From: Escherichia coli | Lineage (GTDB): Bacteria; Pseudomonadota; Gammaproteobacteria; Enterobacterales; Enterobacteriaceae | Reading direction: 5' to 3' (one strand) | NCBI RefSeq assembly: GCF_017348835.2 | Contig: NZ_CP072313.1 | DNA: 36,351 nucleotides | In this document: positions 14,975 through 23,916 of the stretch, one piece after another | Numbering within the stretch: position 1 is the stretch's first letter | How the letters are laid out: each line of letters opens with the position of its first letter | The notes under the pieces: generated by a model | What the model was told of the DNA's origin: nothing | The model's input: the letters and a program-made list of their open reading frames with translations, nothing else | Database searches by the model: none | Translations under genes and position numbers: made by a program

Positions 14975-15175
14975 TAGCATGCCGCACAAGCGGCATGTAA
15001 GGCGGCACTCTGTACTTTAATATGGCTTTGCGGGTTATCCGCCGAAGCCCCGCGCCAGCGGGTACTGTCTTCTATATTCTCTGGAACTGCGCTCGCGCCC
15101 CCTGCTAAGCCAAAACCGCACGAAACCAACAGCCACGCGGCTGTTTCTGGTCGAAGACTGACAATCTTAAAGCGA
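14975..15175 (+). repeat. type-B structured element copy 2
   Basis: hairpin ATGCCGC-ACAA-GCGGCAT and downstream conserved blocks; sits between virB4 and virB5. Confidence 0.8.
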
Positions 15176-15187
15176 GAGGAAAATTCA

Positions 15188-15856
15188 ATGAAAAAGACTC
15201 TGACAGCCCTGTTTCTGGGTGCCACCCTGACCGGATACAGTTCTGTGGCAAGTTCTGTAGGCGGTGTCATCGTTAAAGACCCTGGCAGCATAGCTAAAAC
15301 CGTCGAAGTAATTAAGAAGGCTGCCGATCAGATTGCTGAACTGAAAAAACAGGTTGATCTGGCAACCAGCCAGCTTGAAGCCTATAAGCAGGAAGTGCTG
15401 GATACCAAAAGACGACTGGAAGGTATAACCGATTATTCCGCCATTTTTGGCAGTGCTGAATCCTACATGAAAGACTTCTGGGAAGATATGAAGAAGGAAC
15501 TTACCGATGCTGATATTCGCAGTATGGCAACTAAATACGGCTTTGATACAAAAGAGTACGACCGGATCAAACGCCAGTACGAATCAAAGTTTGAGGAAAT
15601 CACGAAATACGAAGCGATGAGTAAGGACCTGGAGAAAAGCGCAGAAAAGATAAAGGCAACTCAAAAGGCTTTCAGTAAAGCCGATACGCCACAAAAACGC
15701 GAAGAGCTTCAGAATAACATTCTTCTCGAAACTGCCGCCATGCAGTTAAAAATTGCACAGAATGAGGCAGAAATCAATCGTATGGCCCGTGAACGTAAAT
15801 TACGTGAGGAAGCGGCACTGATAAAATATACAGAAGATAACTTTTCCTTTAACTGA
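15188..15856 (+). CDS. virB5: VirB5-like minor pilus component
   Basis: signal peptide followed by a coiled-coil-rich 220-aa protein in the VirB5 position. Confidence 0.8.
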   Translation: MKKTLTALFLGATLTGYSSVASSVGGVIVKDPGSIAKTVEVIKKAADQIAELKKQVDLATSQLEAYKQEVLDTKRRLEGITDYSAIFGSAESYMKDFWEDMKKELTDADIRSMATKYGFDTKEYDRIKRQYESKFEEITKYEAMSKDLEKSAEKIKATQKAFSKADTPQKREELQNNILLETAAMQLKIAQNEAEINRMARERKLREEAALIKYTEDNFSFN

Positions 15857-15948
15857 TAAGAAAGTCACAAATTCTCTCCTAATACATACACTTTTCCTGT
15901 ACTATTTGATAGCATATTTAATTAATATATGCTATCAGGAGGTAACTT

Positions 15949-16296
15949 ATGTTCAAAAAACTACTTGGCGGTTTTATCCTTGCCTTTGCTTTTTTATTAT
16001 CCGGTTGCGGTGGTGATAATGGTGAATTAGCCGGGACATATATAGAAAAAAATCCTGACTCTGGTGATGCACCTCAAAAATGGATTATCAAATACGACAA
16101 AAAGGATAATTACTACACTCAAATATGGATAGAAAAAGATAAGAAAGGTAATGAGCATAACGGAACAACCAACTCATTCCTTATTAGAGATGGAGACTGG
16201 CTTGCAGGAAAAGAAAAACATTTTATTCGAGTGATTGATAAAAACACGCTTCAGTTAAGAGATGATGAGAACGCTTTGTATATCCGTACAAACTGA
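15949..16296 (+). CDS. lipoprotein, probable entry-exclusion protein (Eex-like)
   Basis: lipobox LLSGC; location between virB5 and virB6 as in IncN/IncX-type clusters. Confidence 0.6.
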   Translation: MFKKLLGGFILAFAFLLSGCGGDNGELAGTYIEKNPDSGDAPQKWIIKYDKKDNYYTQIWIEKDKKGNEHNGTTNSFLIRDGDWLAGKEKHFIRVIDKNTLQLRDDENALYIRTN

Positions 16297-21375: not shown

Positions 21376-21657
21376 TGTTTTCGTCTGCGCCAGCAGACAG
21401 AAGGGGCGAACGAAAACTCCAGGGTAGCACAGGATCCACATCGCCCCGAAGCGCGGCAACGCCGCTACTGTTATCGACCGGAACCAGGTCCACCTTCCCG
21501 CCCTGCCAGGCCCGACTGACTCACCGACAACGATGACGCTGATTTGCGCCGCAGAATGCCGCAGTTAGCGCTCGCGCCAGCGAGTTTACGCCGTCCAGGG
21601 TTTCCCTGGACGGGGCGCTGTACTGCGCGTGTGAGCGCCAGCGAGCTACGGGTGCAA
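21376..21657 (+). repeat. type-A GC-rich core copy 4, without the promoter and 5'UTR, between virB11 and virD4
   Basis: aligns with cores of A1-A3; hairpin GTCTGC-GCCA-GCAGAC shows compensatory changes versus ATCCGC...GCGGAT. Confidence 0.8.
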
Positions 21658-21694
21658 CTCTCCGGTGAAAAACCTCACGACAACGGAAAAGCTG

Positions 21695-23716
21695 ATGAAG
21701 AAAAAGAAACTTGTCCTGCCTGTACTTATAGTCTGGCTGATGGCCCTGACAGCCTCCGGCTGGCTGGGAAGTTTTATACTGGTGAAAATCGCCTCACTAC
21801 CGACTGACAACCTGCAATGGAGTACGTACTTATCCACGCTGGCCTATTATGGCTGGCAACCATCCCTCAAAAAATACCTGTTTGCAGGACTTGCGGGGAC
21901 TCTGCTTCCGTTCCTGATTGCACTCATCCTGACTGTCGTGATGTTTGTCGCCGTTCGGGAGAAAAAAACGGTGCACGGTAACGCCAGGCTGGCAAATGAT
22001 CGTGACCTGGCAGACAGCGGTTTTTTTCCCGACGAAAAAGAACTGAAAAATAAGAAATACCCGTCACTGCTCATAGGAAAAATGCCTGAACATAAAGGAC
22101 GTTTTAAATCACGCTATCTGCAATACAGCGGTCAGCAGTTTCTGATGCTGTACGCCCCGACACGAAGCGGTAAGGGCGTCGGGATCGTTATCCCTAACGG
22201 CATCTGGTATACCGACTCGATGGTATTCCTGGATATCAAACTGGAAAACTTTCTTGAGACGGCGGGATACCGGAAAAATGTGTTAAACCAGGAAGTCTAT
22301 CTCTTCAGCCCTGACGGCTACGCACGAGAAATCAGCGGTGAAACAGTACTGACAACTCACCGCTACAATCCCCTTTACTATATTCGCCGTGATCCTGTAT
22401 ATCGCTTTGGCGACCTGGAAAAAATCGCGGTGATCCTGTTTCCGATGACCGGAGGTGAAAACGACACCTGGGTGGAATCCAGTAAAAACGTCTTTATCAG
22501 TCTGGTTCTGTGGTTACTCGATACTGAACTCGAGGGCAAATTTAAAGTTAATATGAACTCGGTGATGAAACTGAGTATTCCGGCTGATGGCTCAAGCCTG
22601 GCAAAATGGATGCTGAACGAGATCAGAAGTCGGGGTAATGAAGTTCTCACTGAACGCTGGAAGGCGTACCATGCTTTACCGGAAGAGGAGAAACAGGGCA
22701 AAACGCCCTCCACCTATCCGTTAAGTGATGACACCATCCGCCTGTTCCGCCAGTTCGCAGCCAAAGAACCCGAGCAACAGGAAAGCATCATGCTCGACTT
22801 TAACCGCACCATGTCAATGTTCGCCAACCCTGTCGTTGCTGCGGCTACGGAAGATAACGATTTTGATATGCGTGATGTGCGCCGTAAAAAAATGACAATT
22901 TACTACGGCATTTCTCCTGGTGCATTAAAGCAATATCAGCGTCTGACTAACCTGTTTTTTTCACAACTGCTTAATGAGAACGTGCGTACTCTGCCAGAAC
23001 ATGACGCAACACTGAAATATCAGTGCACACTCATGCTGGACGAGTTTACGTCAATGGGCCGCCTCGACGTGGTTCAGGTGTCCCTGGCATTCACGGCGGG
23101 CTATAACCTGCGTTTTGTGTTTATTCTGCAAAACAGGGAGCAGTTATTTGATGAAAAACATGGTTACGGGAAAATGGGGGGAAACACTATTCTGAAAAAC
23201 TGTGCGGTTGAAATTTTCTATCCACCTAAAAAAGTGGATGAAAGTGTAAAAGACGTATCAGAAACAATCGGGTATTATGATTTTGTCCGCACTCAAATAA
23301 GCCGGACAACAGGGAAAAACCCTAGTACAACCCGCAATAAAATTATTGAAAAACGGGCTGTTATGCTACCGCAAGAAATTACTGATTTACGGGACCAGAA
23401 ATTTAAAGTCAAAGGAAAGAAAACAAGTTTTTCTTTACCACAAATCGTAATGAGTGAGTTTTGTCGCCCGTTTATTGCACATAAAATTGTCAGTTTCGAT
23501 CAAAACAATGAGTCTTTTTTTGTTAACGCAAGAAAATATTCCCGAAAAAATATCATAGACACACCTGTACTTGATATTCCACAGGATGAAGTGGTTCGTC
23601 AGTTAATGCTCCAGCGGGAAAGGGAGGAAGCGTGGAAAGCGACGCAACCTGCTTTTGATAAAAATGATTTTGATGATGATAAGGAATATTTTCCTGGTGA
23701 TGGTGGTGGTGATTAA
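21695..23716 (+). CDS. virD4: type IV coupling protein (VirD4/TaxB-like); the ORF track extends upstream to a GTG at 21665
   Basis: N-terminal transmembrane helices; Walker A APTRSGKGVGIVIPN; position after virB11. Confidence 0.85.
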   Translation: MKKKKLVLPVLIVWLMALTASGWLGSFILVKIASLPTDNLQWSTYLSTLAYYGWQPSLKKYLFAGLAGTLLPFLIALILTVVMFVAVREKKTVHGNARLANDRDLADSGFFPDEKELKNKKYPSLLIGKMPEHKGRFKSRYLQYSGQQFLMLYAPTRSGKGVGIVIPNGIWYTDSMVFLDIKLENFLETAGYRKNVLNQEVYLFSPDGYAREISGETVLTTHRYNPLYYIRRDPVYRFGDLEKIAVILFPMTGGENDTWVESSKNVFISLVLWLLDTELEGKFKVNMNSVMKLSIPADGSSLAKWMLNEIRSRGNEVLTERWKAYHALPEEEKQGKTPSTYPLSDDTIRLFRQFAAKEPEQQESIMLDFNRTMSMFANPVVAAATEDNDFDMRDVRRKKMTIYYGISPGALKQYQRLTNLFFSQLLNENVRTLPEHDATLKYQCTLMLDEFTSMGRLDVVQVSLAFTAGYNLRFVFILQNREQLFDEKHGYGKMGGNTILKNCAVEIFYPPKKVDESVKDVSETIGYYDFVRTQISRTTGKNPSTTRNKIIEKRAVMLPQEITDLRDQKFKVKGKKTSFSLPQIVMSEFCRPFIAHKIVSFDQNNESFFVNARKYSRKNIIDTPVLDIPQDEVVRQLMLQREREEAWKATQPAFDKNDFDDDKEYFPGDGGGD

Positions 23717-23916
23717 CCATGATGCCGCTTTAAGCGGCATGGAAGGCGGCACTCTGTAGCTCAATATGGCTATGCGGCTTATCCGCCGAAGCCCCGCGCC
23801 AGCGGGTACTGAATCCAATATTCTCTGGTACAGCGCTCGCGCCCCCTGCTAAGCCCAATTGCACGGAACTTACAGCCACTCGGTTGTTTCTGGTCGAAGA
23901 CTGACAAAATCAAAGC
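23717..23916 (+). repeat. type-B structured element copy 3
   Basis: hairpin ATGCCGC-TTTAA-GCGGCAT; begins 1 nt after the virD4 stop. Confidence 0.8.

Follow-up and report, generated by a model that had tools for sequence, protein, structure and literature searches.

The window analysed here is a stretch of 36,351 nt from an Escherichia coli plasmid (contig NZ_CP072313.1) that carries a T4SS operon. Three junctions in and after the run of virB4, virB5, virB11 and virD4 are occupied by inserts belonging to two repeat families, A and B:

14974-15183, plus strand: B2, B-type (homologue of G4-type ssi), at the virB4/virB5 junction; nhmmer with the B profile, E=6e-71
21375-21670, plus strand: A4, A-type (CUP-core type), an orphan copy at the virB11/virD4 junction; nhmmer with the A profile, E=6e-90
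23719-23929, plus strand: B3, B-type, between virD4 and a signal-peptide gene (23964-24293); nhmmer, E=3e-67

A preliminary description of this DNA had placed structured elements at these very junctions, close behind the upstream stop codons, and its coordinates agree with ours, the gap from stop codon to element being 2-13 nt. The virB4 stop lies at 14965, the first hairpin of B2 begins at 14979 and virB5 starts at 15188, giving a spacer of 222 nt. Likewise, virB11 ends at 21375, A4 begins at 21375-21378 and virD4 starts at 21695 (spacer 319 nt, element 296 nt), while virD4 ends at 23716, B3 begins at 23719-23723 and the next gene follows from 23964. The operon had also been called tightly packed elsewhere; this is true of the three junctions in outgroups, but the operon itself is not uniformly tight and has other gaps of 50-200 nt (15856-15949, 16296-16347 and 17408-17609).

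Comparison with T4SS clusters that lack the elements, which the same description had recommended, showed that the inserts are lineage-specific. In the closest outgroup clusters, those of pJARS36 (Yersinia) and paIh5 (Arsenophonus), the corresponding junctions overlap by 4 bp or lie 3-12 bp apart, and in IncX4, IncI2 and R46 (IncN) they measure at most 17 bp; nhmmer detected no A or B element in the T4SS regions of any of these plasmids. Within the family, CP101957.1 (~8% diverged) has a swapped replicon, yet keeps all three operon elements and the whole array described below. The orthologs of A4, B3 and B4 in CP101957.1 are 92%, 92.5% and 96.7% identical, respectively, whereas the third codon positions of virB4 reach 81%. 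The B2 pair is 81% identical (core 87%, tail 71%), i.e. at about the neutral level, and the best match of B2 in CP101957.1 is the paralog B4, suggesting gene conversion. The conservation could also be mimicked by concerted evolution among the copies. A recombination seam was rejected as an explanation, because identity to CP101957.1, followed from gene to gene, does not change abruptly at A4 or B3. The B1-B4 subtype occurred in 12 of 5426 complete E. coli genomes, at 42 places, all of them on plasmids and none chromosomal. MITE-like spread was rejected as well, given the absence of chromosomal copies from the 5426 genomes and of any TIR or TSD when the element ends were read directly.

The three operon elements belong to an array of ten in the window, comprising four A-type and six B-type copies (five of the latter found by repeat search, and one minus-strand copy by nhmmer). 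The remaining members are:

826-1121, plus strand: A1, A-type core, upstream (minus strand) of the leading-region gene 459-692
2586-2880, plus strand: A2, A-type core, upstream of the minus-strand gene 2153-2452
4654-4951, plus strand: A3, A-type core, upstream of the minus-strand J-domain gene 4007-4522
7297-7553, plus strand: B0, replicon G-site subtype, ~600-850 bp downstream of repA (8149-9204, minus strand)
10597-10809, plus strand: B1, B-type, upstream of the T4SS operon (virB1 start 11164); repeat search and nhmmer
35657-35870, plus strand: B4, B-type, directly 3' of a traK/L/M-like leader operon (stop 35654); repeat search and nhmmer
35981-36235, minus strand: B5, inverted copy of B0, the sole element off the plus strand; nhmmer, E=5e-48

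Nine of the ten elements thus lie on the plus strand, whichever way the neighbouring genes run: A1-A3 are antisense to the adjoining genes, whereas B1-B4 and A4 are sense. The exception, B5, forms with 7302-7553 a 252-nt inverted repeat that is 95% complementary, and is conserved in L009 and L013. A single motif, CCCTGC(T/C)A(A/G)GCC, is present in all ten elements and nowhere else in the window (10 matches versus 1.6 expected); B2 carries it as CCCTGCTAAGCC at 15100-15111, and in B3 it occupies 23844-23855.

The relatives of the B elements are found among signals for priming on single-stranded DNA. The B elements align collinearly with ssiE of F, an experimentally isolated site that is presumably a G4-type ssi, with z scores against shuffles of 8.2-14.6 (14.6 for B2), or 5.2 in the case of B0, and the nhmmer B profile matches ssiE in F with E=5e-10. 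In type, B0 and B5 hardly differ from the element downstream of repA in R64, and B0 also shares its place, ~750 bp downstream of repA. At least 5000 IncF/IncI-type plasmids have a match to B0 at this location, which is the position of the primase-dependent G-site in the R1/R100 literature. Furthermore, a block CTGC(A/T)AAGCC in all ten elements corresponds to phage G4 positions 3996-4005, the mapped primer start (the primer feature of the GenBank record spans 3970-3997), and in the copies from IncX4 and IncI2 the block is CTGCAAAGCC, with no difference from G4 3996-4005. Overall similarity to the G4 oric is weak: pairwise z scores were 4.6-5.2 for B1 and B2 (B2, 5.2), 1.6-2.9 for B3, B4 and B0, and ~0 for A, and the nhmmer B profile gave no match in phage G4. 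The link to G4 therefore rests mostly on the 10-nt motif and on the classing of G-sites in the literature.

The A elements are related to the CUP repeats of R46 and, in part, to the G-sites. Against R46, the A profile recovered three copies at E values of 9e-50 to 7e-48, plus one inverted and one partial copy, and its positions 6-179 match G-sites with E values of 1e-7 to 2e-10, i.e. over the 5' half only. In addition, TACTG and CCTGC motifs stand at equal offsets in A and B (about 94 and about 131). In published work CUP denotes a double-stranded promoter/ArdK operator repeat (PMC5371602, PMC6289460), and homology between the CUP core and the G-site is absent from the published CUP descriptions that we found, a set outside which the original 1997 account falls. 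A4 is 91% identical to A1, but lacks the ~190-nt promoter/operator/RBS extension found in A1-A3, and no gene follows it on the templated strand. With no promoter, operator, RBS or gene to drive, A4 suggests a function for the core by itself. Judged by this homology, B2, A4 and B3 are probably additional copies of known ssDNA priming signals.

Single sequences fold moderately better than their shuffles (z -1.9 to -2.5). The three stems of the B family are supported by compensatory changes in 5 of their 17 pairs, and several stems of the A family by double changes in 12 of 46. Consensus folds with DNA parameters gave -22.2 for the plus and -17.8 for the minus strand of A and no difference for B, so that plus and minus strands are not clearly set apart. 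The CTG sites had unremarkable unpaired probabilities in the partition function, which varied between copies.

The orientation of the array acquires a meaning once it is set against the origin of transfer:

33410-33752, plus strand: oriT region, between the relaxosome/relaxase genes (minus strand) and the leader operon (plus strand)

This region carries inverted repeats followed by the conserved ATCGCTGTCGTGCCTGTGT on the plus strand. The canonical MOBP nick sequence YATCCTGY was looked for and is absent from the oriT region. From the relaxase-last gene order, the succession of inverted repeats and conserved block on the plus strand, and the analogy with F, R46, IncX4 and IncI2, we infer that the plus strand is the one transferred. 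The polarity of the elements relative to oriT is the same for the ssiE and CUP elements of F, R46, IncX4, IncI2 and an IncF Shigella plasmid. With this polarity B4 would follow oriT into the recipient before any other element, and its position corresponds to that of ssiE in F. No primase was found in the plasmid annotation or in the relaxase. The suggestion in the preliminary description that the inserts serve to prime ssDNA at intervals on the transferred strand is supported by the homology to ssiE, to the G-site and to the G4 motif, by the nine of ten elements on one strand, and by the polarity relative to oriT elsewhere.

Its other suggestion, processing or attenuation sites, found no support; it belongs to a broader possibility, namely that the inserts act at the RNA level in the operon transcript as 3'-end stabilisers, processing sites or read-through attenuators. 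The sense orientation of the T4SS-region elements would agree with such a role, as would the stable hairpin ATGCCGC-N4-GCGGCAT found 2-13 nt past the stop codon, which resembles REP stabilisers, and the fact that the elements break a translational coupling present in outgroups. However, the spacers contain neither terminator-like hairpins (no GC hairpin with a T-run within 14966-15187, 21376-21694 or 23717-23963) nor promoter-like sites (no sigma-70 -35/-10 hexamer pair on either strand of the B2, A4 and B3 spacers). Rfam returned no match to the elements, its sole hit in the window being an AgrB sRNA elsewhere, and the homologues have a documented role at the DNA level. Since A1-A3 are antisense to their neighbours and B0 lies beside the replication origin, orientation follows the DNA strand and not local transcription, and we consider an RNA-level function very improbable. 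Transcription could instead begin on the DNA that enters the recipient, as in single-strand promoters of the Frpo type, whose hairpins mimic a duplex promoter such that RNA polymerase starts on the incoming strand; A1-A3 would then yield leading-gene transcripts, and the orphan copies antisense RNAs or primers. A1-A3 do precede genes for which the transferred strand is the template, as does every A-type copy in IncX4, IncI2, IncN and IncF, and it is this setting that defines Frpo and ssi promoters (PMC11541004). Against this, BLAST of F ssiD/Frpo and ColIb Frpo1 gave only chance matches in the window, a lack of similarity that is not decisive because new, unrelated classes of ssDNA promoters were recently found by 5' RACE (PMC12672017). 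Moreover, B2, A4 and B3 have no -35/-10-like hexamer pair, the elements are rich in GC and lack an AT-rich -10, and the B elements, whose homologue the G-site is active in a replicon context, have no gene to drive; neither has A4, and B2, A4 and B3 face virB4, virB11 and virD4 in antisense. Promoters of this type are in our judgement improbable here.

A small but appreciable chance is left to the view that the copies at the three operon sites are neutral or selfish, having spread by recombination or gene conversion from genuine sites (the replicon G-site and the leading-region CUPs) and being tolerated on account of their landing between genes, or are scars of module exchange. Homologous recombination is known to act on CUP repeats (PMC5371602), the divergence of the B2 orthologs is close to the neutral rate, and the B1-B4 subtype has the narrow distribution in E. 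coli given above. But direct repeats of 200-300 bp in an essential operon invite deletion, and all three were nevertheless retained in CP101957.1, where the conservation of A4 and B3 resembles that of coding DNA. The lack of an identity break across A4 or B3, of terminal inverted repeats and target duplications, and of chromosomal copies likewise speaks against neutral or selfish spread.

We propose instead, with moderate confidence and by analogy with their homologues, that B2, A4 and B3 are signals for the host primase (G4-type ssi) hard-wired along the transferred strand. On SSB-coated ssDNA, each ssi site would fold into a few hairpins that present the CTG, at which the host primase DnaG would start an RNA primer with no need for a primosome; for the A-type elements, RNA polymerase instead of primase may be the primer maker. 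The plus strand would be nicked near 33.5 kb and enter the recipient with its 5' end leading, and the sites would fire in the order of their entry: B4, A1, A2, A3, B0, B1, B2, A4, B3. Pol III would extend each primer back to the preceding site, so that the complementary strand would be made in pieces of ~1.5-6.4 kb during ongoing transfer. Without the three operon copies the last 23 kb to enter would be free of sites; with them the longest site-free stretch would be ~10 kb, and these remaining ~10 kb could be filled from B4 after recircularisation. Homology, strand bias, lineage-specific insertion and conservation are what the sequences show; besides the transferred strand, we infer the primase dependence, the exact start nucleotide and an effect on establishment as parts of this model.

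A wider generalisation is possible, though we put it forward only tentatively. An ordered array with a host-primase start site every 1.5-6 kb might pre-programme discontinuous complementary-strand synthesis along the whole transferred strand and thereby replace a plasmid-borne conjugative primase, despite the splitting of the T4SS operon. As a corollary, the CUP cores of IncN, IncX4, IncI2 and some IncF leading regions would be priming signals and not promoters alone, and the conserved B5 would prime the replacement strand in the donor. The findings also suggest that a single family unites the CUP core, found in ~1,170 PLSDB plasmids, with the G-site, found in >5,000; CUP cores and G-sites currently go unannotated. 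The plasmid studied here, 36 kb in size, combines nine discrete candidate start sites on one strand with the lack of a recognisable primase. Its three operon sites can be separated from leading-gene expression and thus offer a clean system for studying priming by deletion or inversion. According to reviews, an in vivo role has yet to be demonstrated even for Frpo (PMC7690428). Direct repeats of this length inside an essential operon are at the same time a potential source of deletions.

Several known systems share features with this array. REP/BIME elements are also GC-rich hairpins placed right after stop codons in operons, but the present elements are confined to plasmids, measure 200-300 nt with several stems, are oriented by DNA strand and have priming signals as homologues. 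Like Frpo and ssi1-3 of F and ColIb-P9, which are believed to supply recipient cells with their earliest RNAs and primers, they are hairpin elements on the transferred strand; unlike these, they have no sequence similarity to them and no -35/-10 hexamers, and copies here lie outside the leading region with no genes downstream. The CUPs of R46/pKM101 are closer. The A elements align with three R46 CUPs over ~290 nt, with compensatory changes in the stems, and the invariant blocks CCCTGCTAAGCC, GTACTGCG and TACGGG are common to both. A1-A3, like CUPs, stand at the 5' ends of leading-region genes and operons with a promoter, a palindromic operator-like repressor site and an RBS, although their promoter-proximal part differs from that of R46. 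A4 departs from this pattern, since it consists of the promoter-distal core only and lies, with no gene of its own and no promoter or repressor site, between virB11 and virD4.

Closest to the B elements are ssiE, the G-site located downstream of oriR in IncFII/IncI replicons, and the G4 complementary-strand origin, with which they share three covarying stems 5' of the conserved CTGC(A/T)AAGCC and strand specificity. Their start right after a stop codon also has its counterpart in ssiE, which directly follows orf169 beside oriT, and in the G4 oric, directly after gene F. In known plasmids a single G4-type site lies at the replicon, at the leading edge, or at each of the two. In this plasmid, by contrast, six B and four A copies extend across the whole transferred strand, some of them inside the T4SS operon. 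The element is of a known kind, and it is the arrangement that is unusual.

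The preliminary description placed structured inserts at the virB4/virB5, virB11/virD4 and post-virD4 junctions of the T4SS operon. Stop and start coordinates, together with repeat-family membership, confirmed them: members of two repeat families, A-type and B-type, occupy all three junction spacers. The window covers nearly all of an E. coli plasmid of 36-38 kb whose RepA is of the IncI2 type, whose relaxase is MOBP and whose T4SS is VirB-type; it is 99.6% identical to pDETEC35 (NZ_CP116127.1) over the region compared (window 14000-24500).

Plasmid layout, T4SS junctions and repeat elements
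1-5 kb, minus: leading-region genes
Between leading-region genes and repA: par and toxin-antitoxin genes
8149-9204, minus: repA
11.2-23.7 kb, plus: virB1 to virB11 and virD4
virB4/virB5 junction: virB4 stop 14965, virB5 start 15188
virB11/virD4 junction: virB11 stop 21375, virD4 start 21695
Post-virD4 junction: virD4 stop 23716, next gene start 23964
29.7-33.4 kb, minus: accessory genes, topoisomerase III, relaxase, relaxosome protein
33.4-33.75 kb: oriT region
33.75-35.65 kb, plus: traK/L/M-like leader operon
A-type family (~296 nt): copies at 826 (A1), 2586 (A2), 4654 (A3), 21375 (A4)
B-type family (~210 nt): copies at 7297 (B0), 10597 (B1), 14974 (B2), 23719 (B3), 35657 (B4), plus an inverted copy at 36235-36034 (B5)
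35981-36235, minus: B5, the sixth B-type copy, on the opposite strand

The relaxase has Relaxase and LPD7 domains only, and no primase is among the plasmid's annotated genes. In the stretch that separates topoisomerase III from the relaxase gene's 3' end, 29631-29716 (+) matches the Rfam AgrB antisense sRNA (61.9 bits; gathering score 40) where pDETEC35 has an annotated DinQ-like type I toxin gene (dqlB); the two probably form a type I toxin-antitoxin pair. Three ~49-nt direct repeats (5779-5827, 6080-6128 and 6946-6994; 61-73% identical), possibly centromere-like sites, flank the ParA-type gene and a toxin-antitoxin pair. Within the T4SS operon, a terminator-like hairpin with a T-run (16317-16341, +) follows a 115-aa ORF (15949-16296) and precedes virB6.

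The array is a real, non-random feature. A 12-nt motif occurs 10 times in the window versus 1.6 expected, at exactly the ten elements, and nine of these occurrences are on the plus strand. A1-A3 are antisense to neighbouring genes and B1-B4 and A4 sense; element orientation goes with the DNA strand, not with local transcription. We infer that the plus strand is the transferred one, because the relaxase operon lies on the last-entering side and the leader operon on the other (which we take to be an RP4-like layout), because the oriT inverted repeats are then followed, on the plus strand, by a block conserved with IncI2, and because the polarity matches that of F ssiE, directly after orf169 beside oriT, and of the R46 CUPs (conserved upstream repeats). 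No nick site was located in the oriT region. About ten CCCACA-containing repeats, ~11 nt apart, lie between oriT and the leader operon (33546-33680); they are kept in IncI2 pJIE3685-1, appear as CACACA in the related plasmid CP101957.1, and may constitute a phased protein-binding or bent oriT region.

Suppl. 4 of PMC11541004 gives five known Frpo/ssi sequences, three of which we compared. Only F ssiE resembled the B elements, aligning collinearly over ~135 nt (z 8-14.6 against shuffles; B0, 5.2), whereas F ssiD and ColIb Frpo1 showed no similarity to the elements. The B profile also detects ssiE in F (E=5e-10). At ~76% identity, at least 5,000 PLSDB plasmids share B2's 5' half, mostly once per record, and many of the matches listed are 1.6-2.4 kb in from the start of the record. 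In R64 the copy lies ~750 bp downstream of repA, the same placement as B0; presumably this is the spot at which, in the R1/R100 literature, the leading strand is primed from the primase-dependent 'G site'. That site in R1/R100 was reportedly described by Masai and Arai in 1989. By these alignments, the B-type elements are G-site/ssiE homologues.

A4 matches about 1,170 plasmids (IncX4, IncI2, IncN and some IncF) and is annotated in none. Alignment of the A-type elements to CUPs of R46 (three) and to copies from IncX4 and IncI2 (two each) reveals many compensatory stem changes and the invariant blocks CCCTGC(T/A)AAGCC, GTACTGCG and TACGGG. The first ~180 positions of the A profile match the G-sites of four replicons (E 1e-7 to 2e-10), and TACTG and CCTGC stand at equal offsets in A and B. 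Judged by homology, the A-type family corresponds to the CUP-repeat core, and its 5' half is G-site-like. Across the remaining backbones examined, almost every copy is found in the leading region and precedes genes for which the transferred strand is the template; R46 and a recombinant IncX4 plasmid additionally have an inverted copy apiece beyond the leading region. In IncN, too, the family includes more than the three classical CUPs of the leading region that were aligned:

R46 33090-32810, minus: full A-type copy, inverted, beside the resolvase/replication region
R46 27899-28014, plus: partial A-type copy, upstream of ardB

A palindrome, ATAATACATC-N6-GATGTATTAT, lies at 755-780, 2515-2540 and 4585-4610, in the promoter-proximal part left of A1-A3 and ~60 nt upstream of minus-strand start codons; it looks like a repressor operator.

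The comparison with related T4SS clusters bore out the insertions. In the nearest outgroups, pJARS36 (Yersinia pestis; VirB11 71% identical) and paIh5 (Arsenophonus; 65%), gene order is unchanged, with a 4-bp overlap between virB4 and virB5 and a virB11-virD4 gap of 3-12 bp. Junctions are equally tight in IncX4, IncI2 and R46, and profile searches found no A or B elements in any of these T4SS operons; the junction elements are thus lineage-specific insertions. CP101957.1 (T4SS genes 78-92% identical, RepA different) keeps the complete array in unchanged order and orientation. Its A4, B3 and B4 orthologues are 92-97% identical, versus 81% at virB4 third codon positions; the B2 orthologue is less conserved (81% overall, 87% in the core), and the best match of B2 there is a paralogue, which suggests concerted evolution among copies. 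The CP101957.1 virB4 has a 1-nt frameshifting insertion at ~16580 (aligned to window ~13910) and its virD4 is annotated as two pieces; this plasmid may be transfer-defective, yet it retains the whole array.

The preliminary description offered two functions for the junction elements, processing or attenuation of the transcript and ssDNA priming on the transferred strand. Homology, strand bias and conservation favour the second, and priming by B2, A4 and B3 is the best-supported reading, which we hold with middling confidence. The first found no support: terminator features are missing from the spacers and a role in the operon RNA does not fit orientation by DNA strand, so that we regard it as very improbable. 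Neutral spread of copies to the junctions would agree with the divergence of B2, but direct repeats have been kept inside an essential operon and A4 and B3 are conserved, so that we think it unlikely. A recombination seam is disfavoured by the lack of any identity step in the comparison with CP101957.1. For A-type elements an Frpo-like promoter function is possible, with low probability; it lacks hexamers and similarity to Frpo sequences.

Under the priming reading, the plus strand would enter the recipient from about 33.5 kb, and sites would be reached at about 2.2, 3.7, 5.4, 7.5, 10.2, 13.5, 17.8, 24.2 and 26.6 kb, each yielding a primer extended back as far as the preceding site. Minus B2, A4 and B3, the final 23 kb would be site-free. 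B5 and 7302-7553 form a 252-nt inverted duplication (95%) of the replicon G-site region, and the pairing of B4(+) with B5(-) next to the leader operon is conserved in CP101957.1 and a 121-kb plasmid; B5 might prime replacement-strand synthesis on the donor's retained strand, or permit inversion.

Among known systems, the G4 phage origin region can be aligned in collinear fashion to B1 and B2 at a z of about 5, less clearly to the remaining B copies. The alignment terminates in CTGCAAAGCCAAAA, where the GenBank primer (3970-3997) and origin (3998) fall, and three stems 5' of this motif are maintained in B elements by compensatory changes. In A/CUP, GTACTGCG lies just 3' of a strong hairpin, the placement of CTACTGCA in G4. 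A1-A3 combine a leading-region context, upstream of transferred-strand-templated genes, with the conserved palindrome and an RBS, whereas A4 is the core alone; the R46 CUP promoter region differs from the palindrome-bearing part of A1-A3. By sequence, the elements represent a known kind, putatively G4-type ssi (single-strand initiation signal) and the core of CUP; what is unusual is how they are arranged.
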